Of a stretch of 24,218 bases of DNA, positions 101 to 23,203 are shown piece by piece; position 1 is the first letter of the stretch; the number at the start of each line of letters is the position of its first letter. This DNA comes from Desulfobacteraceae bacterium (GTDB taxonomy: Bacteria; Desulfobacterota; Desulfobacteria; Desulfobacterales; Desulfosarcinaceae), in the NCBI GenBank assembly GCA_027031325.1, contig JALVRI010000576.1:1-24218 (forward strand), in the 5' to 3' direction. The position numbers and the translations under genes are program-made. The notes under the pieces are model-generated. The model was not told the origin of the DNA. It made no database searches and worked only from the letters and a program-made list of their open reading frames with translations.

Positions 101-1681
101 TTACTCCCCGGCTTGATGTCTGATTTCAACCTTGTCGGCCAGGTATTGCTTGACCTGGCCGATGGGAACCTCGCCACGGTGAAAGATGCCGGCGGCCAGG
201 GCGGCTTCGGCCCCTGTCGCGCTAAACACCTGGTAAAAATGCTCCGGGCAGCCTGCACCGCTGGAGGCGATCACCGGAATCGAAACCGCTTCCTTGACGG
301 CATTGACCAGCTCAAGGTCGAAACCCTGGTTGGTGCCGTCGCGATCTATGCAATTGAGCAGGATTTCTCCGGCTCCCAGCTCCTGACAGATTTCGGCCAG
401 GGTGATTGCGTCCAGGGGACGTCCTTCCCGGCCGCCTTTTACCGTGCATTGGTACCAGCAGTGGCGTCTGCCGGCCGGATCGGGATAGCTGGTTTCGATA
501 ACCCGCCGGCCGGATGCCTCCGGGCCGTCCACGTAAACCCGGCGCGGATCGATGGAGATGACCACGGCCTGGTTGCCGTAGACCGAGGCGATCTGCTCGA
601 TGGCGCTGCTGCCCGGGCTGTGGTCGCCGGCCAGGTACCTTTCGGCCACCATGACCGCTTCAGATCCGATCGAAACCTTGTCGGCCCCGGAGCGGAAATA
701 GGCCGAAGCCACTTGAAGGGCCGACCACCGGCGGCCGCCTGAGTCGGTGTAGTCCCTGATTCCGCCGCCGATGGTCAGGGGAACAAAGACCTTTCGGCAA
801 GTGCGGCGGAGTACTTCCAGCATGGGCATGTCTTTGAGGGGAAAGTCCCTGAAACCGGTGATGTTGAGAAAGGTTATCTCGTCGGCCCCTTCCCGGTAAT
901 AGCGCCTGGCAAGTTCCACCGGTTTGCCAAGATTGCGCACCCGGCCTTTTTCGCGGACATCGTACTGGTCGCCCTTGGTGACCACCAGGTCTCCCCGGTC
1001 GTTGGCGCGCACGTCGAGGCAGGCGATGATCCGCTTGGCAAGCCGGGTGGGACAAGGGCGGTGTTGCGGCAGGCAGGGGGCCGGGTTGCGGATGAAGTTT
1101 TCAAGGATCCGGAGGCCGGCCGGTCCGCTTTTTTCCGGGTGAAACTGGGTGGCTACCAGGTTGCCGCGCTGGACGGCGCTGACAAAGGGATAGCCGTAGT
1201 CGGTGGTGGCCAGGACGTGGGAAACATCATCGCAGACGGCGTGGTAACTGTGGACAAAGTAGAATTTTTCGTCACCTTCCAGGCCGCAGAAAATCGGGCT
1301 GGCAGCCCTGGCCGTTATCCCGTTCCAGCCGATATGGGGTACGGCCAGATCGGTTTCGAAGCGCACGATGCGCCCCGGCAGGACCGACAGGCCCCGGATG
1401 CCGGGTGCTTCCCGGCTGCCTTCGAAAAGGGCCTGCAGTCCCAGGCAGATACCGAGAAAGGGACGGTCCTCCAGAAGGTATTTTTTCAATGCTTCTGCCA
1501 GGTGGCGGCGCTGAAGGGTTTCCATCATCTGTCCGAAGGAGCCGACCCCTGGAAAAACAAGCTTTTCGGCGGCCATGATGTCGGACGGCTTTTCCACCAG
1601 GCGCACCGTTTCGCCCAGGGTCTCGATGGCGTTGATGACGCTGCGCACGTTTCCGGCACCGTAATCGAGCAAGGTGATCAT
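101..1681 (-). CDS. hisHF: Fused imidazole glycerol phosphate synthase HisH-HisF (HIS7-like, 526 aa)
   Basis: N-terminal glutaminase: [24 protein letters not shown] (catalytic Cys), QFHPEKSG (His-x-Glu). C-terminal cyclase: [30 protein letters not shown]. Start moved from 1759 to ATG 1681 (MITLLDYG), where the domain begins. Confidence 0.95.
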
Positions 1682-1783
1682 GAGGGTTTTCCATCCTGAA
1701 TGTTGTCGTCTTGGAGTCCTGAAAATCTCCCTATTAACCCAGGAGCGGGATAAAGACAAGTACAGGCTTGCGGCCGCGGGCGA

Positions 1784-4400: not shown

Positions 4401-5634
4401 TTGTATCTCCGGGTGAGTCTTTCCTGATGGCCTGGATTATCCAGACCGGGTTGCCGGCCGCAAAGCGCAAACCTTCTCCAAGGGGTCGGCCGTAGGAAAC
4501 CTGGACCTGGACGGCCTCGGCCTGCCAGCCGGCCTTTTTGAAAAACGCCAGGCTCGCCTCCAGGCTGGAGAGCAGGACCGTGTTGACCACCACAACCGCG
4601 TCCGGGTTGGTCCTTGCGGCGACCACTTCAAGAATGGCCGTAAGTTGCCGGCCGCCGCCGCCGATAAAAACCCGGTCGGCCGGAGGCAACCGGTCCAGGC
4701 CTGCCGGCATCACGGCCCTTACCGCGGTGACGTTGGAGGCTTTCAGGCGCCGGCAGTTGCTTTCCAACTGGGCAAGCCGGCCGGCATCTTTCTCGACCGC
4801 AAAGATCCTTCCCTTGTAGGCCAACACCCCGGCCTCAATGGCCACCGCTCCGCTTCCGGCTCCAAGGTCCCAGACCACGGCCTCGGGAAAAAGGCGCAGG
4901 CGGGCCAGGGAAACGGCCCGCACCTCGGACTTGGTGATCATGGCCTCCCGGCGGACAAACCAGTTGTCAGGCATTCCGAAAAAAGGAACCCCGGTCAACG
5001 GGGTGTCATCCGCTTGCACCAGGATCACCATGTTGGGCTCACTGAATTTCATCCCGGACGCTTCGGCCAGGGTGAAGGAGCGGACTTTTTCGGCGGATGT
5101 TCCCAGTTGCTCGAGGACCCACATCCTGAAGCGGACGGCTCCCCAGGCAAGGGCCCGGCGGGCCACCCAGGCCGGGTCGTGGTCGGGATCGGTGAAAACC
5201 GCCACCTTGGAGCTTTGGGAGAGGGCCTTGCGAAGTTTGCCGGAGTCCCTGCGGCCGTGGCAACTGACAAAGGCCGCATCGTGCCAGGGCAGCTTGAGGC
5301 GGGCGAAGGCCGCCGCCAGGGCGCTGACATTGGGGTGGATTTCAACCCGGTCCGGTCCCAGGGTTGCGGCCAGGTAAGCGCCGATACCGAAAAAAAGCGG
5401 GTCCCCCGAGGCCAGGACTACGATCCTGGCACGGGTCATCTCTTGCCGGAGAAAATCCACCAGGCCGCCAAGATCGCGATCGATGACCTTTTTGGCGCAG
5501 TCCAGGTCCCGGAAAAATTCAAGCAGGCGGGCACCGCCCACCAGTACGTCGGCCTGCCGGATAATTTCCCGCTGCCTTTGGGTAAGATCGTCGGCTGAAA
5601 GGCCGATTCCAATTATATCGATATGATGTCGCAT
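4393..5634 (-). CDS. cbiET: Bifunctional cobalt-precorrin-7 C5-methyltransferase / cobalt-precorrin-6B C15-methyltransferase (CbiE-CbiT, CobL-like)
   Basis: N-half: IIGIG, VVLASGDPLFFGIG, SCHGR. C-half: MITKSEVRAVSLARL, WDLGAGSGAVAIE, DRVFIGGGG. Confidence 0.93.
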   Translation of the reverse strand: MRHHIDIIGIGLSADDLTQRQREIIRQADVLVGGARLLEFFRDLDCAKKVIDRDLGGLVDFLRQEMTRARIVVLASGDPLFFGIGAYLAATLGPDRVEIHPNVSALAAAFARLKLPWHDAAFVSCHGRRDSGKLRKALSQSSKVAVFTDPDHDPAWVARRALAWGAVRFRMWVLEQLGTSAEKVRSFTLAEASGMKFSEPNMVILVQADDTPLTGVPFFGMPDNWFVRREAMITKSEVRAVSLARLRLFPEAVVWDLGAGSGAVAIEAGVLAYKGRIFAVEKDAGRLAQLESNCRRLKASNVTAVRAVMPAGLDRLPPADRVFIGGGGRQLTAILEVVAARTNPDAVVVVNTVLLSSLEASLAFFKKAGWQAEAVQVQVSYGRPLGEGLRFAAGNPVWIIQAIRKDSPGDTNA

Positions 5635-5652
5635 AATACCATAATCACTGCT

Positions 5653-6795
5653 TTAAGTATTGGGTGACGGCCGGGGCATACGCCTGGTGCCTCTTTGACC
5701 ATGGTAAACCAGCTTGCCTTCAAAATCAAAGATCACGGCTTCGAGGCTTGTCCGGGAGGGACAGCAGCCTGCGGCGGAAGCCAGGAGGCGCTTTCCCACG
5801 GCCGCGATGGCCCGCGGGTGCCGGGCGCGGATGATGTCGAAGGCCTGGCGGGCCGTGTTGCAGGCCGAAACCAGGCGTGCAAGCTCATCACCGCCACCTG
5901 CCTGCCGGCACCAGTCTGCCAGGGCCTTCATGTCCACCGGGCCCTTGTCGGCGTGGGTATGGGCCAGACCCTGGGCCATTTTGACCGCCTTGCCGAAAAA
6001 GACCGCCAGGACAACAAGGCCGAATCCCCGCCTGCAAGCTTGCTCAAGGGAAAAGGCGAAAAAATCGCCCATCTGGACGAAGGCGGTTTCATCTATTTGT
6101 GGCCAGAGGCCCTGGGCGAAACGTTCACTGCGGCGCCCGGTGGTCAGGACGACCTGGTCCAGTCCCACGGCCCGTGCAACGGCCATGGCCTTTTCGATGG
6201 TGGCCTTGTAGGCCGCGTGGGACATGGGTCTTACGATACCGGTCGTGCCCAGGATCGAAATTCCGTCCAGGATACCAAGACGCGCGTTGAGGGTTTTGCG
6301 GGCCAGCTTTTTGCCATCCGGAACGAATACTTCCACGGTGATATCCAGGTCACCGGCTTGGGGGGGCAGCTCGGAGCGCACCTCGTTTTCGATCATCCGC
6401 TTGGGACCGGAGGTGATGGCCGGGTGGCCCACGGCAACCTCGAGCCCCGGCTTGGTCACCCGGCCGACTCCCGGGCCGCCGGTTATTATGACCCGGCCCC
6501 TTCCCGGGCGATGGAGGGTGACCACGGTCCCGATGCGGGCCTTGTGGGTGACATCGGGGTCGTCGCCGGCATCCTTGATGACTTCGGCCAGGGCGCGCTT
6601 GGGGCCTAGTCGGCGGCAGGCGGCAATGGCGATGGCGCCCCGGCTTCCGTCGAGAAAAGAGATTGAAACCTCGGCGGGAGCAGCTCCGCCCATCAAGAGC
6701 CTGGTGGCCGCCTTGGCGGCGGCGGCCGCCGCCGCCCCGGTGGTAAAACCGGATCGCAGGCGTTTTTGGGGTTTGGCGCCGGTTGAAGGAGTCAT
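5653..6795 (-). CDS. cbiD: Cobalt-precorrin-5B C1-methyltransferase CbiD
   Basis: LRSGFTTGAAAAAAAKAA, KDAGDDPDVTH, GVGRVTKPGL, TLNARLGILDGISILGTTGIVRPMS. ATGA overlap with cbiL. Confidence 0.95.
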   Translation of the reverse strand: MTPSTGAKPQKRLRSGFTTGAAAAAAAKAATRLLMGGAAPAEVSISFLDGSRGAIAIAACRRLGPKRALAEVIKDAGDDPDVTHKARIGTVVTLHRPGRGRVIITGGPGVGRVTKPGLEVAVGHPAITSGPKRMIENEVRSELPPQAGDLDITVEVFVPDGKKLARKTLNARLGILDGISILGTTGIVRPMSHAAYKATIEKAMAVARAVGLDQVVLTTGRRSERFAQGLWPQIDETAFVQMGDFFAFSLEQACRRGFGLVVLAVFFGKAVKMAQGLAHTHADKGPVDMKALADWCRQAGGGDELARLVSACNTARQAFDIIRARHPRAIAAVGKRLLASAAGCCPSRTSLEAVIFDFEGKLVYHGQRGTRRMPRPSPNT

Positions 6796-9559: not shown

Positions 9560-10591
9560 TCACTCTTTTATCCAGGCAGGCTCGAGTTCGGCCCGCTCCT
9601 GGAAACGCGCCAGGATGTCCGGCCCGTGGCGCAGGAAGGTTTTAGGGTGCAATATCGTTCCGATGCGCTGGATGCCGAGCAGCAGCCGGCAGGTCGGGCG
9701 CGAGACTATCTTTTCACTGACGAGGTAGACCCTGCCCGCAGCCACGGCCTTGATGATTTCAAATCCTGGTTCCTTTACTATATCGTTGACCCGGACCGGG
9801 TTCATGGGCCCCTGTTGGGCCAGGTAGTAGTCGATTCGGCGGGCATGGGAAAGGATGCGCTCTTTTCCGTAGACCGCGATGTTGTTGTTGGGACGCACCG
9901 GTGCGTCCGAAGCGACGTTGATTCCACCGGCCGCTTCCAGGACGAAGATCGCCGCCGCTGTCGGAGCGAAGGTCTTCATCTTGGAATGGATGGCCTCGAA
10001 GTAAACCCGGGGTTTGTTTTTCAGTCCGGCCGTGAGCCTGCGAAAGTCGGCCACCGCCCGCCTGAAGGCGGCCACCAACCGCCCGGCCCGTTGCCGTTGC
10101 CCGCTCAGGACCCCCAGGATCTTCCAGTAGGTCATGACCTCGTCCATGTTGCGGGGCTGGAGGCTGACCACTGTAACCCCGCTTTCTTCCAGGCGCTGGA
10201 TGAAATCGGGGTGGCCCCGGTCTATCATGGGTCGTACCAGGACCAGGTCGGGCTTGGCGGCCAGCAGGCGTTCGGGGTCGTCGTGGGCCGAAAAGACCGG
10301 CTTGGTCCGGGCGGCCGGAGGAAAGCTGTCGTGAGCGGTAACTCCGATGACCGACTCTCCAAGCCCCAGGGCAAACAGGTTTTCGGTGTGGGCGGTATAA
10401 AGGGAGATGATTCTGCGCTTTACCTGGCCGGCCCGGATGCGGCGCCCGGCCTGGTCGATAACGTATCCGCTGGATGTCAGGACCGGGGCCAGCCCGTGGC
10501 TTTTGGCAAGTGAGTGCGCGGCTGTCCGGCCCGGGACCGGTAAAACGGTCAGGGCGAAGACCAAGACAGGCGTAAAAAGCTTTTTCAGCAT
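9560..10591 (-). CDS. ABC transporter substrate-binding protein, BtuF/FecB-like (probably corrinoid)
   Basis: Signal-peptide-like N-terminus; RIISL...TENLFALG...VIGV, ERLLAAKPDLVL. Lies in the B12-riboswitch operon. Confidence 0.85.
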   Translation of the reverse strand: MLKKLFTPVLVFALTVLPVPGRTAAHSLAKSHGLAPVLTSSGYVIDQAGRRIRAGQVKRRIISLYTAHTENLFALGLGESVIGVTAHDSFPPAARTKPVFSAHDDPERLLAAKPDLVLVRPMIDRGHPDFIQRLEESGVTVVSLQPRNMDEVMTYWKILGVLSGQRQRAGRLVAAFRRAVADFRRLTAGLKNKPRVYFEAIHSKMKTFAPTAAAIFVLEAAGGINVASDAPVRPNNNIAVYGKERILSHARRIDYYLAQQGPMNPVRVNDIVKEPGFEIIKAVAAGRVYLVSEKIVSRPTCRLLLGIQRIGTILHPKTFLRHGPDILARFQERAELEPAWIKE

Positions 10592-10606
10592 GGCTGAGCC
10601 TCCCGC

Positions 10607-11401
10607 TTAAGTCGCATGATCCCCGTGGGTGAAAACCACCTGGAGGGTACCGGCAAAATCGTCGTGACGTACCATGGCCGGCACCCTGAAGACCATTTCC
10701 AGGTTGGAGCCTGTAAGAACCTCTTTCTTTTTTCCGGCGGCCACCACTTTTCCCCGATTCAAAAGAACAATGTGGCTGCAGAAGGCTGCCGCAAGGTTGA
10801 TATCCTGGAAAACGGCGATGGCACAACAGTTGTTTTCCCGTACCCTCCGGGCGACACATCGCATCAGGCCCAGGGCGTGGTTGATGTCCAGGTTGGCGGT
10901 AGCCTCGTCCAGGACCAGGACCGGTGTATCTTGGGCCAGGGCCCTGGCAAAAACGACCCGCTGGCGCTCACCGCCGCTGAGCTCGGTTATCCTGCGCCCG
11001 GCAAGACCCAGGGTGTCGGTTTCTTCCAGGACCTGTTGCACAACTTCCAGGTCCTTTTTTGCCGGGGAGGTGAAGCGGGGCAGGTGGGCATAGCGGCCCA
11101 TCAGGACCACTTCCCGGACGCTGAAAGGAAAACCGATGACGTATTGTTGGGGGACCAGGGCCAGCTTGCGTGCCAGGCTGCGGCGGGTGTAAGTGTCCAG
11201 GGGGCGGTCGTCGAGCAGGATAAGGCCCTGTTCCGGTTTCAAATGGCGGCAGAGAAGGTCCAGCAAGGTGGTTTTGCCGCTGCCGTTGGGACCCAGGATT
11301 CCGTAGAAGTGACCGTAGCCGAAGTCAAGGTCGACGGCCTTGAAGATGCGTGCCTGGCGGTAACTGAAAGATACCTGCTGGAGCTTAAAGGCCATCGGCA
11401 A
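10607..11401 (-). CDS. ABC transporter ATP-binding protein, BtuD/FecE-like
   Basis: Walker A GPNGSGKT, signature LSGGERQR, Walker B VLVLDE. The H-loop reads QD instead of HD (see findings). Start may be 11395. Confidence 0.92.
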   Translation of the reverse strand: MPMAFKLQQVSFSYRQARIFKAVDLDFGYGHFYGILGPNGSGKTTLLDLLCRHLKPEQGLILLDDRPLDTYTRRSLARKLALVPQQYVIGFPFSVREVVLMGRYAHLPRFTSPAKKDLEVVQQVLEETDTLGLAGRRITELSGGERQRVVFARALAQDTPVLVLDEATANLDINHALGLMRCVARRVRENNCCAIAVFQDINLAAAFCSHIVLLNRGKVVAAGKKKEVLTGSNLEMVFRVPAMVRHDDFAGTLQVVFTHGDHAT

Positions 11402-12455
11402 CCCCCTTTTTTTGGCGCCTGCGAAACAGGTAACAGAAAAAGGGCCCGCCGATAAGGGCCGTCAGGACGCCTACCGGAACTTCACGCGGCAGCACGGCCC
11501 TTGTCAGGGTATCGGCCGCCAGCAAAAGCAAAGCGCCGGCAAGAAAAGAAAAGGGCAGCAGGCGCCGGTTGTCAGGACCGGCAAGGCTCCTTACCATGTG
11601 GGGTACCAGCAGGCCCACGAATCCGATAATGCCCGAAATGGAGACACAGGCCGCCGTGACCAGGGAGGCACTGACCAGCAGGACCAGGGTCGCTTTCCTG
11701 GTGGAGACCCCCAGGGATGCCGCCGAACGCCGGCCCAGGGCCATGAGGTTCAGGTCCCGGGCGTAGAAAGCGAAAACCGCCATTCCGACAGCGGAAAAGA
11801 TCGCTACCAGCCCGACCTGGGGCCAGGTTCGGCCGGCGAAACTGCCCATCAGCCAGAAAATTATGGCTGCAACCTGCTCGTCGGCCAGGTATTTCAGGAA
11901 GCTGATACCCGCCGACAAGATGGCAGCGACGATGATACCGGAAAGGATCAGGCTGGTTGAGCCGTAGCCGTTTGCGGAAGCCGACAGGTAGAGTACCGCC
12001 GCCAGGGTGGCCAGGGCGCCCATGAAGGCGAAGAGGGTGAGGCTGTAACTGCCGAACAGGGATAGGTTGAGCACGATCGCCAGGGAGGCTCCGAAAGACG
12101 CTCCGGCCGATATTCCCAGGGTATAGGGGTCGGCCAGGGGGTTGAGCAGGAGGGCCTGGAAGACCACACCGCAGGCCGCCAGGCCGCCGCCGACGATGGC
12201 CGAAGCCAGAATGCGCGGAAGTCGCACCTGCCAGACAACAACCGGCAGGAGGGGGTCCAGATCGGCGATCCAGTGACCGGCCTTGAATATCTTGGCGCCG
12301 ATAATGCTCGCCACCTGGGACCAGGCAATGGAGATATAGCCCATGCCGGAGGCGGTCACCACCGCTGCCGACAGCAGGGCCGCCAGGAGGAACAGGACGA
12401 CCAGCTGCTTTCCGGCAAAAAGGCGTGGACTGAATTCGGATTCTGCCCCTGGCAT
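11385..12455 (-). CDS. ABC transporter permease, BtuC/FecCD family
   Basis: RLPRILASAIVGGGLA, NPLADPYTLGISAGA, FWLMGS, GIIGFVGLLVPH, GGPFF. Start moved from TTG 12470 to ATG 12455, which has SD GGGGAAGA. Confidence 0.93.
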   Translation of the reverse strand: MPGAESEFSPRLFAGKQLVVLFLLAALLSAAVVTASGMGYISIAWSQVASIIGAKIFKAGHWIADLDPLLPVVVWQVRLPRILASAIVGGGLAACGVVFQALLLNPLADPYTLGISAGASFGASLAIVLNLSLFGSYSLTLFAFMGALATLAAVLYLSASANGYGSTSLILSGIIVAAILSAGISFLKYLADEQVAAIIFWLMGSFAGRTWPQVGLVAIFSAVGMAVFAFYARDLNLMALGRRSAASLGVSTRKATLVLLVSASLVTAACVSISGIIGFVGLLVPHMVRSLAGPDNRRLLPFSFLAGALLLLAADTLTRAVLPREVPVGVLTALIGGPFFCYLFRRRQKKGVADGL

Positions 12456-12467
12456 TTGTATCTTCCC

Positions 12468-12512
12468 CAAAAAACAAGCCCTTCTGTGCCTGAAAAAAGC
12501 ATTAGAAGGGCT
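12468..12512 (-). terminator. Intrinsic terminator/attenuator, probable riboswitch expression platform
   Basis: Minus strand reads AGCCCTTCT-N18-AGAAGGGCT followed by TGTTTTTT, directly before the permease SD. Confidence 0.7.
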
Positions 12513-12577
12513 GCACCCAGCTTACTTGACCCTTGGTGAGTGTTCCCCGGTTGCCTGGTAGCAACCCGGGTTGCGGC

Positions 12578-12778
12578 AAGGCAGGTCTTCTGGCTTCCCT
12601 GCCCGTTTCGGCGGCCTTCCCATCGTAAAGCCGACAGTGGCAATTGAGCCGAAAGGGTTCCGGCGGTCGTTGGTGACAGCCGGCAGGGTTACAGCGGCGG
12701 GACCGCTCCCGATTTCAACGGGATTCCCTATTAAGCCCATCCGGTACCTGTCCGGCAAAAGCGGGCACCTTGCAGGGC
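12578..12778 (-). ncRNA. Cobalamin (AdoCbl) riboswitch
   Basis: Minus strand reads AGGTGCCC...GGGCTTAATAGGGAATCCCGTTGAAATCGGGAGCGGTCCCGCCGCTGTAA...GCCACTGT...GGGAAGG...GGGAAGCCAGAAGACCTGCC, with all hallmark B12-element motifs, upstream of btu/cbi genes. Confidence 0.96.
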
Positions 12779-15370: not shown

Positions 15371-15727
15371 TCAACTCATGATATCTATAACTCGGCCCAG
15401 GATTTCATCTTCCGTCTTCAAGGCTGCAAGATTGGCCTGATAGGCATGACGAACAGTCATCAAATCGGCCATCTCCTCGACCAGGTCTACGTTTGAACCC
15501 TCGACTTCGGTGGTCGTATCATCGGCGTAAGTTTCATGGATGGGTCCGGGAGTTTCTTCGTCCTTGAAGACCTGGGCCTTTACACCTCCGTGATCGCCTT
15601 CCGACAGTATGGTACGCCTGCGCTTGAATCCGTCGGTTTGGACATTGGCGATGTTGTCAGCGGTTACGTTCAATTTTTTTTGAAAAGCCGAAATGGCAGT
15701 TAGAGTCGTACTGTCGGCTACGACCAT
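15371..15727 (-). CDS. Short flagellar basal-body rod/hook-family protein (FlgC/FlgG-like N- and C-terminal domains only, 118 aa)
   Basis: N-terminal rod motif VTADNIANVQTDGFK and C-terminal motif EGSNVDLVEEMADLM...AYQAN...EDEILG. ATG 15727 with SD GGGAGG. Confidence 0.85.
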   Translation of the reverse strand: MVVADSTTLTAISAFQKKLNVTADNIANVQTDGFKRRRTILSEGDHGGVKAQVFKDEETPGPIHETYADDTTTEVEGSNVDLVEEMADLMTVRHAYQANLAALKTEDEILGRVIDIMS

Positions 15728-15769
15728 GTTTGCCTCCCTTTCGGCCTTTAGCCTGCTCACATGGATCAC

Positions 15770-16333: not shown

Positions 16334-16349
16334 AGGCATTTGAAGTGCA
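16334..16349 (+). promoter_or_regulatory. Candidate sigma54 promoter for the cyclase operon
   Basis: AGGCATTTGAAGTGCA gives exact GG-N10-GC spacing with GGCA and TGCA cores; AT-rich region upstream; 64 nt before the first ATG. Confidence 0.55.
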
Positions 16350-16412: not shown

Positions 16413-18647
16413 ATGCTTATCAAACAGGGAACAAAAAACGGTTGCGAGCGACCAGGGTTGTTGAGGCGCCTGTTGGAGAACCGTTTGCGACGGGCCATGA
16501 TCGTTGCCGTGGTATCTTTGTGCCTCTCCCAGGTGTTGGTTGCTTCAGGCTGGCTGCGACAGCTGGAGAACTTGAGCATCGACTGGCGCATGAGGCTCTG
16601 CCGTAAAAATCGCCCTTTACCGCAGGAGATGGTCCTGATTCTGATAGACGAAGCTTCCCTTGACGCCATGAACCGGATTGGCGGGCGTTGGCCCTGGGAC
16701 AGGCAGGTTCATGCAAACGTTATCGATTTTCTCAACCTGGCAGGTGCCAGGGCGATCGTCTTTGATGTCCTCTTTACCGAAGAACAAGGCGATCCGGGCC
16801 AATCAGGTGCAAGCAGATCGGATAGTATTTTGGCCGAAGCCACGTCCCAGGCCAAGGTGATCCATGCGGCCCAGCTTGCAGGAGAGAAAAAAGCAGGCTC
16901 TCTTTCCGGTTACCCCTTGCCGCCTGATTTTGCCGCCCGTTTTGGATTGTCCCTGAAGGGCAGCAGGCTCCAACTCAGGCAAAAAAGTGAGGCCTACCTG
17001 CCCTACGACAGGTTATGGCGTGCAGCCACTGGAGTCGGGGTTGTCAGCGTCGACCCCGACCCGGACGGTGTGATTCGCAAAATGCCCTTGCTGGTTGCTT
17101 ACGGCGGCACGATCCTGCCGGGCTTGGCATTGGCGACTGCGCTGGCGGGGCAGGACCGGGTCGGGCTGGAATGCAGTTCCGGCCGCCTTATCCTGAAAAG
17201 CGGCCAGCGACTTTTCAGGATCCCGGTCGATTTGAGGGGGCGGATCAGGGTCAATCCCTATGGCCGCTACGAGGCATACTCTTACAGCGGAGTCTATCTC
17301 AGCCTCCAGCAGATGATGGACGGTAAACTAAACAACCTTCCCGTCGAGCCATCGGTTTTCAAGGATAAAATCGTTTTCATAGGCGCCAGCGCAGCCGGGG
17401 TTGAAGACCTCAAGACAACCGCCCTGGGCCCCGATACACCCGGTGTCCTGCTGCACGCATCGGTTTTGGCGAACATTTTGGAAAACGATTTCATTAACGA
17501 GGCTCCCTGGCAAGTGATGACCCTGCTGGCAGCCTTGATGGCCGGCGTGGCGGTTTGCTGCGTTGTCTACAGCGAGTCTCTCTGGCTCCAGGTAAGCCTT
17601 CCCCTCCTGGCTGCAACAGGCCTGTGGTGGGTGGCCCTCAAGCTGACGGCTTCAGGCCTGCTGGTAGGGCTGATGGGTCCAAGCTGTGCGCTCCTGCTGG
17701 CACATGGCGGGGCATTGGCGACCGAGCGTTTCATGGAGAGGATCGAAAAATCCAGGATAAGAAATTACCTTGGGCAATATGTTTCACCGGTCGTCCTGGA
17801 CAAGATTATCACCTGCCACGATGGAGACTACCTGGGCGCGGAAGTCGGCGCCGAGGAAAAGCTGAGCATAATGTTTACAGACCTGCGGGGGTTTACAACC
17901 ATCAGCCAGTCGATGCCGGTAGACCGGGTTGTCAACCTGCTCAACCGCTACCTGTCACTTATGACTGAAAAGGTTTTCGAATACCATGGCACCCTGGACA
18001 AGTTTATCGGGGATGCCCTGGTTGCTTTTTGGGGAGCGCCCTTGCCCGAACAGGACCATCCGGTCAAGGCGGTAAGCTGCGCCCTGGCGATGTTGAAAGC
18101 CCTGGCGCATTTCAACGAATTCAAACGTCTGCCGTCAGAGCCGATTTTGAAAATGGGGATCGGCATAAATACCGACCGGGTCATCCTGGGCAACATCGGG
18201 TCTGAAAGGAAGCTCGATTACACCATCGTTGGAGACGGGGTCAACCTGGCTTCGAGGCTTGAAGGACTGACCAAGACTTACCGGGTCCCCATCGTGGTTT
18301 CGCACGCCACCTACCGCCTGGTGCGATCCCGCATCGTCTGCCGTCCCTTGGACGTGGTGAAGGTCAAGGGACGCAAGGGAAAAACGAGAATTTATCATCC
18401 CCTGGGAGCGGCGGATGAAATTGATCGCCAAATGCTGCAAGTGGCGGCCCTGAGCCGGGAAGGGCTCGATTTGTTCCTTGAATGCCGTTTCGAACAGGCC
18501 CTGGGGGTCTACCAGCGCCTGGAACGTCTTCTGCCGGGAGACCAGGTGGCCAGGATCTTTGTCGAACGCTGCCGCAATAGACTTTCAGGCGGCCATCAAA
18601 GCGTTCCAATCAAGAAGGATACAGGTGACAGCTTGAGGAGAATTTAA
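16413..18647 (+). CDS. CHASE2-domain membrane adenylate cyclase (class III) with C-terminal TPR-like helices
   Basis: N-terminal TM segment; CHASE2 motifs (LILIDEASL, RWPWDR, AIVFDVLF, DPDGVIR, IVFIGASAAG); three TM segments; cyclase motifs MFTDLRGFT, DKFIGDA, DYTIVGDGVNLASRLEG. The Lys/Asp specificity pair indicates ATP. Start may be 16497. Confidence 0.93.
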   Translation: MLIKQGTKNGCERPGLLRRLLENRLRRAMIVAVVSLCLSQVLVASGWLRQLENLSIDWRMRLCRKNRPLPQEMVLILIDEASLDAMNRIGGRWPWDRQVHANVIDFLNLAGARAIVFDVLFTEEQGDPGQSGASRSDSILAEATSQAKVIHAAQLAGEKKAGSLSGYPLPPDFAARFGLSLKGSRLQLRQKSEAYLPYDRLWRAATGVGVVSVDPDPDGVIRKMPLLVAYGGTILPGLALATALAGQDRVGLECSSGRLILKSGQRLFRIPVDLRGRIRVNPYGRYEAYSYSGVYLSLQQMMDGKLNNLPVEPSVFKDKIVFIGASAAGVEDLKTTALGPDTPGVLLHASVLANILENDFINEAPWQVMTLLAALMAGVAVCCVVYSESLWLQVSLPLLAATGLWWVALKLTASGLLVGLMGPSCALLLAHGGALATERFMERIEKSRIRNYLGQYVSPVVLDKIITCHDGDYLGAEVGAEEKLSIMFTDLRGFTTISQSMPVDRVVNLLNRYLSLMTEKVFEYHGTLDKFIGDALVAFWGAPLPEQDHPVKAVSCALAMLKALAHFNEFKRLPSEPILKMGIGINTDRVILGNIGSERKLDYTIVGDGVNLASRLEGLTKTYRVPIVVSHATYRLVRSRIVCRPLDVVKVKGRKGKTRIYHPLGAADEIDRQMLQVAALSREGLDLFLECRFEQALGVYQRLERLLPGDQVARIFVERCRNRLSGGHQSVPIKKDTGDSLRRI

Positions 18648-18648
18648 C

Positions 18649-19149
18649 ATGAACACAAGAAGATGGATGTCTATCGCGGTTTGCCTGGGGATATTGCTTC
18701 TGTCCGGCCGGGTGTTTGGCGAAACAATCTACGTTCACAGCCGGATAGCCCCGCTGATGGCAGGGCCTGACCTTGCTTCCGGCAAGCTGGGGGAACTGGA
18801 GTTGGGCTCGAAACTGGAAGCCGACCGGCTTCAAAACGGCTGGTACCATGTTGTGTCGGACGGCAAAAGCGGATGGGTCAATCGCTTGATGGTCAAAAAG
18901 TACCCCCCGGTCAAGGAGAAGGGGGACCAATTGATGGGCCGGCAGCACCTTGCCAGGCGTGCCCGGATACGGCCATCGAGCCTGGCTTCCACGGCGGCCG
19001 CCCGTGGACTTAGGGCTGAACGCAACCGCTACAATATGAGGTTGAAGGCCGACTACAAGGCACTTGAGAAGATGGAAAGTTTTCGGGTGACCCCCCAGGA
19101 TGCCCGCTGCTTCGTAATGAAAGGATCCCAAAATGTGTCAGGGCAATAA
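18649..19149 (+). CDS. Secreted SH3b-domain protein
   Basis: Sec-type signal peptide (MNTRRWMSIAVCLGILLLSGRVFG); SH3b pattern GSKLE...NGWYHV...KSGWV; Arg-rich C-terminal half with STAAARGL. Confidence 0.8.
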   Translation: MNTRRWMSIAVCLGILLLSGRVFGETIYVHSRIAPLMAGPDLASGKLGELELGSKLEADRLQNGWYHVVSDGKSGWVNRLMVKKYPPVKEKGDQLMGRQHLARRARIRPSSLASTAAARGLRAERNRYNMRLKADYKALEKMESFRVTPQDARCFVMKGSQNVSGQ

Positions 19150-20008
19150 ACCGGTATCGGCACTGGTGGTGATGGTGATGGTTATCGGGTTGGCCGCAAG
19201 GGCTGATTGCGGGCGACAGCGGATCAACGTGATTGCCAAGGAGCAAGAGGCCCCGGCCGATTGGCAAACCGAAGCCTGGTTCGGCCGCAAGCTTGCCGCA
19301 AGAATCCTGGGCAGCATTCCCCTCTGCGATTGTCCGGCCGCCAATCGCTATCTCAATCTTGTCGGCAGCGGACTGGCACTCTATGCGCCTGCCCCGGGAG
19401 CCGTTTTTACCTTTGGGATCCTGGACAGTGAAAAGGTCAACGCTTACGCCACACCGGGCGGGTATATTTTTGTCACCAAGGGAGCCATTTTGCGCATGCG
19501 CAATGAGGCCGAACTGGCCGCCGTGTTGGGGCATGAAATCGCCCATGTGTCATGCCATCACATGGTCAAGAGCCTTGGCCTCAACCGCCACCAGGATTCG
19601 GCCGTAGGAGGAATGGCGGTTTTGGTCGGAGGGACGACCGGCAGTTTTCGGCAGGCAATTTCACAAGGCCTGGAAAAAGGCCTGGAGATCCTTTTCGACA
19701 CCGGTTACAGCCGCAAGCAGGAACTTGAAGCCGACCGGATCGGAATGCAGCTGGCAGTCACGGCCGGGTATCGCAAGGACGGACTGGTAAACTTTTTGAA
19801 GCGCATTCACGGTTTTGAAGCCTCGGCCGCTGAGGATGACAGGAGTCACCCCACCTGGAAGGTACGACTTCAACAGTTGGAGGCAAGCATGGATGGACTG
19901 CATCAAGATCCAGGTCCAGGCCAGACAAGGGAGGAGCGTTTTAATGAAGCTTTTGCGCAGTTGTTTGATTCTGATATTGGCGATGAGCATAACCGCAGTT
20001 CAAGGTGA
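19133..20008 (+). CDS. M48-family zinc metalloprotease (periplasmic, BepA/LoiP-like)
   Basis: Signal peptide; VNAYATPGGYIFV, ELAAVLGHEIAHV (HExxH), YSRKQELEADRIG, SHP; all zinc-site motifs intact. Confidence 0.92.
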   Translation: MCQGNKPVSALVVMVMVIGLAARADCGRQRINVIAKEQEAPADWQTEAWFGRKLAARILGSIPLCDCPAANRYLNLVGSGLALYAPAPGAVFTFGILDSEKVNAYATPGGYIFVTKGAILRMRNEAELAAVLGHEIAHVSCHHMVKSLGLNRHQDSAVGGMAVLVGGTTGSFRQAISQGLEKGLEILFDTGYSRKQELEADRIGMQLAVTAGYRKDGLVNFLKRIHGFEASAAEDDRSHPTWKVRLQQLEASMDGLHQDPGPGQTREERFNEAFAQLFDSDIGDEHNRSSR

Positions 20009-21236
20009 GGATGGCTTTGCCGACGATCAGCATTATGTGAACGTCCTTGTGGGAAGCCGGGCCGCCTCCCTGGGAGGTGCGTACACGGCCCTGGCCGATG
20101 ATCCCTCGGGCTGCTATTACAATCCGGCCGGTATCGCGCTGGCGCCCTACCAGAGTTTTTCGGCCAGCATGAACGTCTTCCAGCGTTCCCTGAAAACTTA
20201 CGAGCATGCCCTGGCAGACACTGAAGGCAATCTGCATGACTGGGAGCAGGAATCTTCGACCCTGTTGCCCAACTTTTTCGGCGTGATAAAGAATTTCGGC
20301 AAGGGAGTCCTGGGTATTTCCTACGCCGTGCCGGATGCCATCAACCGGCGCCAGCGCCAGAGTTTCCGGAATATCCAGTCCAACATTGCCGGAAATCCTG
20401 TCGAAAATTTCACCATCGATATCAACGACAGCGACCGTACCTTTCTCTTCGGCCCCTCGTATGCCGTAAGGCTCAGTGACAACCTGTCCCTGGGAGGGAC
20501 GCTTTACGTGTATTACAGGGACCGGGAGGTGGTTCGCAACCAGTTGTTGCAGTTCGAACAGGGCCAGCATTACTGGATAAACTACTACGAAACCAGGCAG
20601 GATTGGGGGCTTCGGCCTATTTTGGGGCTGATCTGGGAACCGCATCAGAAGTTGGCCTTGGGGCTGACCGCGGCCAAGACTTTTGTCACCTCGGGTAAGC
20701 TCAAACAGCAGACAACTTTCAGGGATTCTTCGGCCGACAGCCCTTACATCATAGACGGTATAAGCTACGATTTTTCAGATACAGACACCCTCTATTTCGA
20801 TTCGACCACCACCCATCCAAGCGATGATCAGCCCCTTAGCCTGACCCTGGGAGCATCTTACTTCGTTTCGCCGCGCTTGCTGGCGACCATGGACTTGAGC
20901 TTTCACCAGGCCGAAGATCAAAAGGAGGCAACCTGGAACCTGGCCGCCGGTGCGGAATACTACTTGACCGAATCGATCGCCCTGCGCCTGGGTTTATATT
21001 CCGACCGGGCAAACACCCCGGAGTTGAGCAGCAATGCCACCAACCAGGCCGAGCATGTCGATATCTACGGCGCCAGTTTCGGGGTGGCCGTTTTTTCCCA
21101 ACAGTCGAGCCTGTCGCTGGGTTTCGGCTATGCCAGGGGAGAAGGCGAGGCTCAGATAGTAAGCGACAGCCTTACGATTCAGGATGTCACCATAGAAGAC
21201 CTGACTATTTATCTTGCGGCGGGCTACAGTTTTTGA
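19944..21236 (+). CDS. Outer-membrane beta-barrel, OmpP1/FadL/TodX-like
   Basis: ATG 19944 with SD GGAGGAG; signal peptide; GSRAASLGGAYTALADDPSGCYYNPAG (FadL-type hatch motif); amphipathic beta strands; C-terminal beta-signal YLAAGYSF. Confidence 0.82.
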   Translation: MKLLRSCLILILAMSITAVQGEDGFADDQHYVNVLVGSRAASLGGAYTALADDPSGCYYNPAGIALAPYQSFSASMNVFQRSLKTYEHALADTEGNLHDWEQESSTLLPNFFGVIKNFGKGVLGISYAVPDAINRRQRQSFRNIQSNIAGNPVENFTIDINDSDRTFLFGPSYAVRLSDNLSLGGTLYVYYRDREVVRNQLLQFEQGQHYWINYYETRQDWGLRPILGLIWEPHQKLALGLTAAKTFVTSGKLKQQTTFRDSSADSPYIIDGISYDFSDTDTLYFDSTTTHPSDDQPLSLTLGASYFVSPRLLATMDLSFHQAEDQKEATWNLAAGAEYYLTESIALRLGLYSDRANTPELSSNATNQAEHVDIYGASFGVAVFSQQSSLSLGFGYARGEGEAQIVSDSLTIQDVTIEDLTIYLAAGYSF

Positions 21237-21325: not shown

Positions 21326-21403
21326 GATTGGATGGAGACATGGCCGGGGCCTGCTGAAGGTCCCATAGCTGAAAAGGCGGCAGGAACTCGAGCCGGTTTT
21401 ACA

Positions 21404-22282
21404 ATGGAAACTGAAAAAAGAATCAAGACCATCAAGCGTTTCATCGAGCGGATGCCCAGCTTGCCGACCTCGGTTACCAAGGTATTGGAGATCTGCAACC
21501 GGCCCGATACCTCACCCAACGATCTGAACCGCGTCATCTCCCTCGATCCGGTATTGACCGGGCAGGTACTCCGGCTGATCAATTCAGCCTATTATGCCCT
21601 GCCCAACCGGATTACCTCCCTGACCAGGGCCATCATCATGCTGGGGATAAATACGGTCAAGAACCTGGCCCTGGCCACATCGGTACTGAGCACATTCAAG
21701 GACCGGATTGCCTGTAAAAAGGTATCCATGGATGATTTCTGGGCCCACAGCCTGGGAGTCGGGGTGATCGCAAAGACCTTGGCCCAAATCAGCGGGGTTA
21801 CCCCGGCCGAGCAGGAAACTTATTTCGTTGCCGGTCTGCTCCACGATCTGGGCAAGATTCCCCTGGCAAACAAGTTCCCGGCCGAATACGACCAGGTAGT
21901 CGAAAACGCCGGCAACAACGGAGGATCCCTGGTGCAATGGGAACAGAACGTGTTCGGTATCAACCATCTCCAGGTCGGTGGAATGATCGCCGACAAATGG
22001 AAGCTCAACCAGGAAATGAGATCTGCAATAATCGGACACTGCCTGGAGTGCGAGGACGTTCCCGATCATCGGGTTGCGATTATGGTGGCCCTGGCCGATT
22101 ATCTGGCGGTTCGTTTCGAGATCGGAGCGGCCGGCAACGGCAAGGTCGAGGATAAGGTTCTGGTGGCTGCCCTGAGCCGGATCTCCATCAAGCCGGACAG
22201 GCTGGAAGGATTGCGGAGCAAGGTGGAACTGGAGGTAGACAAGGCCAGGGATTTTTTGAAAATCGCAGGGAAGGATGAATAG
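21404..22282 (+). CDS. Stand-alone HDOD-domain protein
   Basis: MPSLP...DPVLTGQVLRLINSAYY...SLTRAIIMLG, FWAHS, AGLLHDLGK, INHLQVG...WKL. Start is probably 21404; the ORF track uses 21332. Confidence 0.92.
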   Translation: METEKRIKTIKRFIERMPSLPTSVTKVLEICNRPDTSPNDLNRVISLDPVLTGQVLRLINSAYYALPNRITSLTRAIIMLGINTVKNLALATSVLSTFKDRIACKKVSMDDFWAHSLGVGVIAKTLAQISGVTPAEQETYFVAGLLHDLGKIPLANKFPAEYDQVVENAGNNGGSLVQWEQNVFGINHLQVGGMIADKWKLNQEMRSAIIGHCLECEDVPDHRVAIMVALADYLAVRFEIGAAGNGKVEDKVLVAALSRISIKPDRLEGLRSKVELEVDKARDFLKIAGKDE

Positions 22283-22285
22283 GTC

Positions 22286-23203
22286 ATGGAAGTCACTTTT
22301 TGGGGTGTAAGAGGATCTATCCCGTGTCCCGGACCCGAGACGGTCAAGTATGGAGGCAATACGGCCTGCCTTGAACTTTATCTGGAAGAAATAGACAGGC
22401 GCATAATAATCGACGCCGGATCGGGTATCAGGCTGCTGGGCAACAAGCTGATGGCCGAACAACTGCCCAAAGGACCCATCGAGGCCGATATCTTTTTCAC
22501 CCATACCCACTGGGATCACATCATGGGGTTTCCCTTTTTCACGCCTGTGTTTATCCCCGGGACCAGGCTCAACATCTACGGCCCGGTGACCTTTGAAAAC
22601 GAAACCCTTCAGGATGCCCTCAACGGCCAGTGGACCTACCGCTATTTCCCGGTCCGCCACGAAGAGCTTTCCTCGCAGATCAATTACTTTGACCTCAAGG
22701 AAGAGCGCATCGACCTGGGACAGGGCCTTTCGGTTCAGACCAAGTACCTGAACCATCCCTTGCTTTGTCTCGGTTATCGCTTCGAGTTCGAAGGCAAGGT
22801 CTTTTGCACGGCTTATGATACCGAGCCTTTCCGTAACCTGTTTTGCAACGATCCCCAAGACCCGTCCTATGACGAGGCCATGGCCCTGGAAGGGGAACAG
22901 GTGGCCAGGGAAGAAAACCAGCGCCTCGAACGGTTCATCCAGGGTGCCGACCTGCTGGTCTACGATACCATGTATACCCAGGCCGAACTCGAAAACGGCC
23001 GCAGGGGATGGGGGCACTCTTCCATGGAATATGCCATCGAGTCGTCGATTGGTAACAATGTCAAACAGCTGATCTTGTTTCATCACGATCCCGGCCGGAG
23101 CGACGCCGAGCTGGACGGCTTGGAAAAAAGTTTGTGCCTGCCGGCAAGACAGGATGGTCTGGACGTCAGTTTCGCCAGGGAGGGAGTTACCCTGACCCTT
23201 TGA
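22286..23203 (+). CDS. MBL-fold metallo-hydrolase (RNase Z/PhnP/cyclic-nucleotide phosphodiesterase-like)
   Basis: FWGVRGSIPCPG, YGGNTAC, IDAGSG, THTHWDHIMG (HxHxDH), HP...GYR, GHSS, FHHDP. Starts 3 nt after the HDOD stop. Confidence 0.92.
   Translation: MEVTFWGVRGSIPCPGPETVKYGGNTACLELYLEEIDRRIIIDAGSGIRLLGNKLMAEQLPKGPIEADIFFTHTHWDHIMGFPFFTPVFIPGTRLNIYGPVTFENETLQDALNGQWTYRYFPVRHEELSSQINYFDLKEERIDLGQGLSVQTKYLNHPLLCLGYRFEFEGKVFCTAYDTEPFRNLFCNDPQDPSYDEAMALEGEQVAREENQRLERFIQGADLLVYDTMYTQAELENGRRGWGHSSMEYAIESSIGNNVKQLILFHHDPGRSDAELDGLEKSLCLPARQDGLDVSFAREGVTLTL

Follow-up and report, generated by a model that had tools for sequence, protein, structure and literature searches.

INTRODUCTION

In Escherichia coli, the small periplasmic protein CpxP inhibits the sensor CpxA, and the periplasmic protease DegP removes CpxP under stress. 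In Sinorhizobium meliloti, the M48 lipoprotein JspA and its partner LppA lower the level of periplasmic ExoR, an inhibitor of the ExoS kinase (PMC10659215). The CHASE2 cyclases of S. meliloti (CyaK, CyaD1 and CyaD2) need the outer-membrane barrel NsrA, a protein of about 1200 amino acids (aa) whose barrel comprises residues 600-1200 (PMC7529298), and the signal is free ribosomal protein uL2, which has an isoelectric point (pI) of 11.1 (PMC7529298, PMC13001267). In the Burkholderia 'BiofilmReg' operon, a LysM-FecR periplasmic protein is encoded beside a CHASE2 histidine kinase (PMC5192318). Here, we analyse a locus in a 24,218-nucleotide (nt) stretch of Desulfobacteraceae DNA (the window) in which a CHASE2 adenylate cyclase gene is followed by genes for a secreted SH3-domain protein (SH3T), a short M48 protease and an outer-membrane barrel. 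The window is contig C576 of a metagenome-assembled genome (MAG) with 639 contigs and 89% completeness, and a read-run search shows that its sequence is present in DNA runs from hydrothermal-vent metagenomes, no RNA run with it being found. The phylum is Desulfobacterota; loci of the same phylum match Geobacter sp. OR-1 at 77% nucleotide identity and a Desulfobacula MAG at 73%.

CHASE2 is among the commonest extracytoplasmic sensor domains; in our sample of Desulfobacterota it occurs in 233 of 401 genomes, with about 456 matches. Earlier work describes it as a receptor domain for small molecules (PMC8195603), and fusions of CHASE2 with caspase-like domains occur in cyanobacteria and TRADD-N systems (PMC3501461, PMC8195603). 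A CHASE2 ligand, evidence of ligand binding or an activation mechanism was not found in the searchable literature, a search that leaves many subscription-journal papers outside. We find that the conserved core of the locus consists of three genes, for the CHASE2 receptor, SH3T and M48, which occur together across more than ten phyla.

RESULTS

A four-gene locus with an intact receptor cyclase

The locus comprises four co-oriented open reading frames (ORFs) on the + strand (16413-18647, 18649-19149, 19133-20008 and 19944-21236); the first two are separated by 1 nt, the second and third overlap by 17 nt, and the third and fourth by 65 nt. This last overlap presumes that the barrel starts at the ATG at 19944, which is preceded by a Shine-Dalgarno site (GGGAGGAG) and opens a signal peptide. 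An original prediction, made from the sequence alone, had described four tightly coupled genes with this spacing and these domains; the coordinates match and all domains score above the Pfam curated cut-offs. Its picture of a gene set that spans the envelope also fits the hydropathy of the cyclase together with the signal-peptide-like N-termini of the second, third and fourth gene products.

The first gene (16413..18647, +) encodes a receptor-type class III adenylate cyclase of 744 aa, identified by Pfam, hydropathy and catalytic residues. Its CHASE2 domain (PF05226) scores 188.1 bits against a cut-off of 26.3 and covers residues 40-380 (DNA 16530-17552), and its Guanylate_cyc domain scores 82.7 bits (DNA 17853-18395). 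Hydropathy shows one hydrophobic segment near the N-terminus (residues 25-50) and, at 364-431, a cluster that would correspond to about three membrane segments, and therefore the CHASE2 domain, from about residue 50 to 365, should face the periplasm. The closest solved relative of the cyclase domain is the catalytic domain of Pseudomonas aeruginosa CyaB (3R5G, 126 bits). Residues D490, D534, K530, D608, N611 and R615 are all present, in agreement with the intact catalytic site first predicted; we take them to be the two metal-binding Asp, the Lys/Asp pair for ATP selection and the transition-state Asn and Arg of a class III cyclase. The receptor should make cytoplasmic cyclic AMP (cAMP) in response to periplasmic CHASE2 input. 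A search of the genome returned a single CHASE2 gene, 7 class III cyclase matches and 13 matches to cyclic-nucleotide-monophosphate (cNMP)-binding domains, so a cAMP output would have readers.

The receptor, SH3T and M48 genes are linked across phyla

We searched the 401 genomes of the phylum with an SH3T profile, which yielded 54 full-length matches, and fetched about 8 kilobases (kb) on each side. Neighbours were stop-to-stop six-frame ORFs compared with profiles made from the window's proteins, a procedure that weak or divergent partners may escape. In each of the 54 loci, SH3T has an M48 gene directly behind it, on its own strand. In 42 of them, a CHASE2 receptor gene is the immediate neighbour of the SH3T-M48 pair, upstream on the SH3T side or downstream on the M48 side, showing that the linkage survives rearrangement. 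The 42 linked receptors comprise 36 complete CHASE2 cyclases, three cut by contig ends and three that have no cyclase domain (561-590 aa). At two loci, an intact SH3T-M48 pair lies beside a broken CHASE2 cyclase, split over several frames at L073:5620-7760 and over two frames at L066:5528-7814, each being a pseudogene or an assembly error.

To look across phyla, we scanned one genome of each species for the motif [AG][VI]L[AG]HE[IV][AG]H[VI], which returned 80 named loci. SH3T lies directly before a short M48 gene, mostly together with CHASE2, in the beta- and gammaproteobacteria Thiobacillus, Methylotenera, Gallionellaceae, Methylophilus, Acidovorax and a Pseudomonas MAG; in Nitrospirota, Nitrospinota, Zetaproteobacteria, Myxococcales and Kofleriaceae; in the Desulfobacterota Smithella, Desulfobotulus, Desulfobacula, Geobacter and Desulfuromonadaceae; and in Tepidisphaeraceae, Verrucomicrobiota, Kiritimatiellia, Spirochaetes and Aegiribacteria. 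The scan also supplied a negative control: 33 of the 80 loci have M48 only, and these are long BepA-like genes without SH3T before them and without CHASE2 nearby. Thus, the recurrence check proposed with the original prediction, for the trio with or without the barrel, comes out in favour of the trio, whose members co-occur far beyond chance and across phyla, and against the barrel.

The same neighbours accompany CHASE2 receptors of 548-590 aa that carry no cyclase domain (L052, L078, L089, L094, L098, L102 and L153). Because these receptors keep SH3T and M48, the pair goes with the sensor domain and not with the output. Such receptors end in a conserved C-terminal domain of about 135 aa without a Pfam match (L094:3531-5273(+), L078:8547-10229(-)); ESM Atlas features, at 0.8, give a weak hint of a GGDEF or cyclase-like palm fold, to be taken as a lead only. 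A Methylotenera receptor without cyclase is 64% identical over 554 residues to one from Desulfobacterota, and this identity between distant phyla suggests horizontal transfer.

Natural fusions of the two partner proteins were also found. When two proteins that are encoded separately in other genomes occur fused, this is a classic sign of joint action, and it does not reveal what they do. In a Brocadiaceae MAG (L146), a 486-aa SH3-M48 fusion directly follows the CHASE2 cyclase gene; its signal peptide and SH3 domain are followed by a degenerate tail and an M48 domain whose HEVAH is intact, and in its AlphaFold model both the SH3 and the M48 domain fold confidently. We found ten clusters of SH3-M48 fusions (P0160-P0169, of which P0160 is the L146 protein) and two more with SH3_3 and M48 Pfam domains. 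At the Planctomycetota locus L171, a CHASE2 cyclase gene and a fusion gene are followed by genes for a divergently transcribed cNMP-binding MscS channel and an MBL/PDEase_II hydrolase; a second Planctomycetota locus, L172, has the fusion, channel and hydrolase in the same order, its first gene being cut by the contig end. In a Thiobacillus MAG (L096), a fused SH3T-M48 whose HExxH reads REVVH, and whose protease is probably inactive on that ground, lies directly before the CHASE2 gene. The same locus has two SH3T genes followed by an M48 gene, with the fusion about 3 kb further on (4641-6684 and 10033-12672), and locus L095 has two SH3T-M48 pairs in a row.

The linked proteases form a clade of short M48 enzymes

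The third gene (19133..20008, +) encodes a short periplasmic M48 zinc metalloprotease of 291 aa, identified by Pfam, a family alignment and a tree. It has a signal peptide ending ARA/D, a Peptidase_M48 score of 102.7 bits (cut-off 20.3) and no TPR match in Pfam. Its catalytic residues were predicted to be intact, and this is borne out by the HExxH motif (H134, E135, H138) and the downstream Glu E197; H134, E135, H138, E197 and D201 are invariant in an alignment of 25 family members. The closest solved relative is the Geobacter structure 3C37 (E value 8.5e-20), followed by BepA (6SAR and 6AIT).

Two identities were considered for this protease and rejected. The original prediction had drawn on M48 enzymes of the BepA type; the window's protease has no TPR half, it scores 94.7 bits against the BepA model NF052400 (cut-off 570), covering profile positions 45-226 of 483 only, and it falls in a separate clade. 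Against the LoiP model NF052399 it scores 49.7 bits (cut-off 365), and its N-terminus, ARA/DC, has no canonical lipobox. A lipobox is carried by about a third of the M48 family members.

We built a maximum-likelihood tree of 140 M48 domains. One branch, with a Shimodaira-Hasegawa-like approximate likelihood ratio test (SH-aLRT) value of 99, separates 102 rows, among them all 91 SH3T-linked M48s, from 38 rows whose ORFs have a median length of 502 aa and none of which is linked to SH3T or CHASE2. The linked side also holds 11 unlabelled rows; six of these adjoin CHASE2, and SH3T there is weak, fused or undetected. Across the whole tree, the SH3T-linkage label needs 10 changes, compared with 40.6 in shuffles.

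SH3T combines a bacterial SH3 domain with a conserved tail

SH3T (18649..19149, +) is a secreted basic protein of 166 aa, identified by Pfam SH3_3, a structural model and a family profile. It consists of a signal peptide (residues 1-24), a bacterial SH3 domain (25-84; SH3_3 score of 31 bits, cut-off 27), a Pro-Pro hinge and a helical tail, which carries the family motif RRARIRPSSLASTAAARGL at 103-121 and DYKALEKMESF at 135-145. The pI of the mature protein is 10.2. In the AlphaFold model, the mean predicted local distance difference test (pLDDT) value is 85, exceeding 90 in the SH3 strands (25-78), and the tail forms four helices. The motif region is the least confident part of the model (pLDDT 55-69), from which the conserved tail segment is probably flexible.

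A Foldseek fold search matches only the SH3b part of SH3T, to SH3b domains of cell-wall hydrolases (E value about 2e-4). Assignment to the YgiM-like family of SH3 proteins with a membrane anchor (TIGR04211) was rejected, the score being 18.3 bits against a cut-off of 65, and the likeness between predicted models is limited to overall layout. A word-indexed search returned four SH3T relatives, whose alignment conserves the C-terminal tail as well as the SH3 domain. When the SH3T profile was compared with 1.8 billion representatives, 1039 matched at E<1e-10 and about 110 were full-length (about 160 aa) at E<1e-26.

The tail consensus in the window's SH3T sub-family is ARRRASxxTxAAARGL ... DYxALxxME. 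Its core, A-x-[RK]-G-[LFIV], occurs in 93 of 94 family members from all loci examined, and the basic RRRAS stretch is limited to the window's sub-family. Neither can serve as a marker to tell CHASE2-linked pairs from pairs without a CHASE2 neighbour (orphan pairs), RRRAS being confined to the sub-family and the core being universal.

The barrel is a lineage-specific addition

The fourth gene (19944..21236, +) encodes an outer-membrane beta-barrel of the FadL/OmpP1/TodX family, 430 aa long with a signal peptide, identified by Pfam and Atlas features. Its Toluene_X (PF03349) score is 41.6 bits (cut-off 29.7) over profile positions 24-382 of 421, and its ESM Atlas feature matches at 0.98-0.99 are all FadL/OmpP1 clusters. 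The type IX secretion proteins PorV and PorQ were rejected as identities (NF033709, 51.3 bits against a cut-off of 90; NF033711, 25 bits against 220), as was BamG, whose model score is under its cut-off.

Barrel homologues (E<1e-115) occur in only nine of the 54 loci, those nearest to the window, and in three close relatives, giving 12 loci in all, with L002 to L005 among the loci that have it; the barrel gene lies either after M48 or divergently upstream of the trio (L040, L041). An ORF profile scan found the barrel in none of the 80 named loci from other groups. The 12 barrel-linked M48s make up one side of a tree branch (SH-aLRT 87), consistent with a single acquisition of the barrel. The barrel is thus a lineage-specific addition and not part of the conserved core; the original prediction had counted it as a component of the system, a status that is not upheld beyond the window's sub-lineage. 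The most distant locus with the four-gene order is L005, whose SH3T is 33% identical; a 1605-aa protein with faint Ig-like matches only is encoded after its barrel (L005:3259-8076(+)).

Promoter signals and flanking genes

A candidate sigma54 promoter had been proposed in front of the cyclase gene. The sequence at 16334-16349 departs from TGGCAC-N5-TTGCW at 3 positions, and it proved no better than chance: matches of equal quality number 108 in the window, where 110 are expected from shuffles. The site is also not conserved in the two closest relatives. A scan for promoters and terminators gave no more sites than shuffled sequence.

Beyond the barrel, after 95 nt, lie genes for an HDOD/HD protein and an MBL-fold hydrolase (21332-23203, +), and divergently upstream of the cyclase lies a small gene (15371-15769, -) whose product has only the N- and C-terminal flagellar rod/hook motifs (Flg_bb_rod, Flg_bbr_C). 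Neither was retained as part of the module, each being kept only in the two or three closest relatives (L002 and L003 in the case of the rod-motif gene). The MBL ortholog in L002 has a weak match to the anti-Pycsar protein Apyc1. The MBL/PDEase_II neighbours raise the possibility of a cAMP-degrading partner near the module; the window's MBL protein, considered as a possible class II cAMP phosphodiesterase, shares only 23% identity (130 residues) with the PDEase_II-type MBL of L171, and its sole match in the PDB at E<=0.001 is RNase Z. Far upstream, the ORF list contains a long frame at 101-1759 (-), for which a fused HisH-HisF is the label of the original prediction only.

DISCUSSION

A proposed periplasmic relay and its rivals

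We propose that the trio forms one signalling cassette, in which SH3T is a periplasmic accessory of CHASE2 and a dedicated M48 protease sets the amount or form of SH3T, and hence the activity of the cyclase. We regard this proposal as evenly poised between right and wrong. SH3T would be a bound modulator of the CHASE2 domain, either an inhibitor or an activator, and M48 would set its level or form by cutting within the conserved and putatively flexible part of the tail near A-x-R-G-L. An envelope change would then be converted to a cAMP change; candidate inputs are the binding of peptidoglycan or peptides by the SH3 domain, or an altered protease activity. In the window's sub-lineage, the barrel would most likely bring an outside cue, such as a hydrophobic compound or a surface contact, to the SH3T-M48 pair, in a role like that of NsrA for CyaK in S. 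meliloti, the closest precedent for the barrel. The gene order, domains, intact catalytic residues, cross-phylum linkage, protease clade and SH3-M48 fusions are observed; what we infer is every physical interaction, cleavage by M48, the direction in which cAMP is regulated and what the barrel does. The earlier suggestion that the protease acts on the SH3 protein fits the constant position of SH3T directly before M48 and the natural fusions; the further steps that it envisaged would go beyond these observations.

Several observations weigh against a signalling cassette. The kin genomes in our sample are not independent, and the locus counts are accordingly higher than the true number of independent cases. 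SH3T-M48 pairs without a CHASE2 gene nearby make up 12 of the 54, which indicates that the pair can work with other partners or alone. Four of these orphan pairs directly follow genes for giant secreted proteins of 2560-2625 aa (L047:8655-16463(-), L051:8594-16276(-), L071:101-7858(+) and L074:88-7962(+)), and the rest lie beside housekeeping genes (lnt, prmA). The four Desulfobacterota loci with giant proteins include a Geobacter-like genome, and the L047 protein, the one scanned, has PD40, TPR and a C-terminal CHAT (caspase-like) domain. The pair may thus serve more than one kind of partner. The linked CHASE2 genes are 42 of the approximately 456 matches in the phylum, about a tenth, so the cassette would be a solution for one sub-family and not a general CHASE2 mechanism. 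Finally, the tail core is kept in orphan pairs too and therefore cannot be CHASE2-specific; its conservation there fits a role of this core in the relationship between SH3T and M48 rather than in CHASE2 recognition.

The orphan pairs bear most directly on a different explanation, in which SH3T and M48 would be an envelope-maintenance pair for quality control of peptidoglycan or outer-membrane proteins, and the CHASE2 cyclase would merely be co-encoded or act upstream, with no input from the pair. SH3b would target the wall and M48 would degrade stalled proteins, as BepA, LoiP and YcaL do. This explanation draws on the eight of 54 loci in which an orphan pair lies beside lnt, prmA or other housekeeping genes, on BepA and the Geobacter M48 as the nearest solved relatives of the protease, on the resemblance of the SH3 part to the SH3b of wall hydrolases, and on the barrel, a possible M48 client, as the next gene in the window's lineage. 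However, the CHASE2 linkage persists through changes of gene order, across more than ten phyla and with two receptor outputs, which co-regulation alone rarely achieves. The protease clade also stands apart from the BepA-like enzymes, none of which adjoins CHASE2, and the protease has no TPR domain of the kind that docks BepA on the BAM complex. We consider a pure maintenance role unlikely. If the partners should prove to have no effect on the cyclase, the pair would still represent a new, widespread and dedicated M48 family.

The two remaining explanations place the signal elsewhere. FadL-family barrels (FadL, TodX and TbuX) import hydrophobic molecules, and the window's barrel, which meets its Pfam cut-off and stays beside the trio in two arrangements within the sub-lineage, might admit a hydrophobic compound that is bound by CHASE2, leaving SH3T and M48 outside the signal path here. 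The published description of CHASE2 as a small-molecule receptor domain (PMC8195603) agrees with such sensing, but among the 54 loci CHASE2 is present in 42 and the barrel in only nine, none of the 80 named loci has it, and a barrel-fed sensor cannot explain SH3T and M48 as conserved partners; moreover, evidence of ligand binding by any CHASE2 domain was not found in the searchable literature. This makes barrel-fed sensing quite improbable. Alternatively, the SH3T-M48 pair could be a proteolytic trigger, for the CHASE2 cyclase, the CHASE2 receptor with the C-terminal domain that has no Pfam match, or the giant CHAT proteins, in a conflict or cell-fate module that serves a self/non-self or stress-death decision and not routine envelope sensing. 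The four pairs directly after PD40/TPR/CHAT proteins, the CHASE2-caspase-like fusions of cyanobacteria and TRADD-N systems (PMC3501461, PMC8195603) and the apparent horizontal transfer of a receptor between Methylotenera and Desulfobacterota all point in this direction. But the window holds no toxin, nuclease or other typical effector, the commonest partner of the pair is an ordinary cyclase with intact catalytic residues, and the many cNMP-binding proteins of the genome are typical of regulatory cAMP use. We therefore judge a conflict module very improbable.

A signalling cassette as proposed would be of interest in two respects. The trio, which recurs in more than ten phyla, puts forward two proteins as candidate inputs to one CHASE2 sub-family, and the natural SH3-M48 fusions strengthen the case for them. 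The cyclase output makes this input hypothesis cheap to test through cAMP, and the barrel-bearing version would show how the relay connects to the outer membrane. A stronger form of the proposal, that SH3T or a tail fragment released by M48 is the direct physiological ligand of this CHASE2 sub-family, is in our view doubtful. If true, it would account for two decades without a known CHASE2 ligand: some of these domains would read an endogenous, protease-gated periplasmic protein and not a small molecule from the environment. In responding to uL2, S. meliloti would then be reacting to a mimic of such a ligand, and in the window's lineage a FadL-type barrel would couple the relay to the surface in a complete pathway from the outer membrane to cAMP.

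Comparison with known systems

An SH3 or M48 partner of CHASE2, or the trio itself, is not described in the literature that we searched, with the same restriction on subscription journals, and neither did that search find CHASE2, adenylate cyclase and M48 together. The original prediction had held that no characterised pathway has this composition. For the composition this stands, whereas the logic has precedents in NsrA/CyaK, ExoR/JspA/LppA/ExoS and CpxP/DegP/CpxA. A membrane sensor with an accessory protein under proteolytic control is a known kind of system; it is the composition of this one and its attachment to CHASE2 that appear to be undescribed.

The NsrA/CyaK pathway resembles the window in joining an inner-membrane CHASE2 class III cyclase to a barrel encoded beside the cyclase gene. 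SH3T is, moreover, small and very basic (pI 10.2), like the signal of that system, uL2 (pI 11.1), and uL2 contains an SH3-like barrel. The window is nevertheless not of the NsrA-CyaK type: its barrel has 430 aa and belongs to the FadL family, NsrA being compared here by its published size only. No protease is known in the NsrA pathway, unlike the present module, and our search of plasmid records, including pSymB with cyaK, found no SH3T homologue.

The protease itself shares with BepA (YfgC), LoiP and 3C37 the M48 catalytic fold, an HExxH motif followed further on by Glu, and its place in the periplasm. It differs from BepA and LoiP in having no TPR domain, in scoring far under their model cut-offs and in belonging to a separate clade of the tree. 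As a circuit, the closest M48 precedent is the ExoR/JspA/LppA/ExoS-ChvI system, in which, as in our proposal, an extracytoplasmic M48 and a partner of about 150 aa control a periplasmic protein that binds a sensor. JspA, however, is a 497-aa lipoprotein with LysM, and ExoS, a histidine kinase, has no CHASE2 domain; ExoR consists of Sel1 repeats, LppA is a lipoprotein for which an SH3 domain is not reported, and the genes are not in the operon of the sensor. The CpxP/DegP/CpxA circuit has the very logic proposed here, but its proteins (a helical LTXXQ protein, a serine protease and a kinase, respectively) are unrelated to those of the module, and its other genes do not adjoin that of the protease.

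The BiofilmReg operon differs from the module in its components: its partner protein combines LysM and FecR, where the window has SH3 and a tail, it contains no protease, and its output is a kinase with a response regulator. It shares with the module a secreted protein with a wall-binding domain that is encoded directly beside a CHASE2 receptor, and it thus provides a second case of CHASE2 with a dedicated periplasmic partner.

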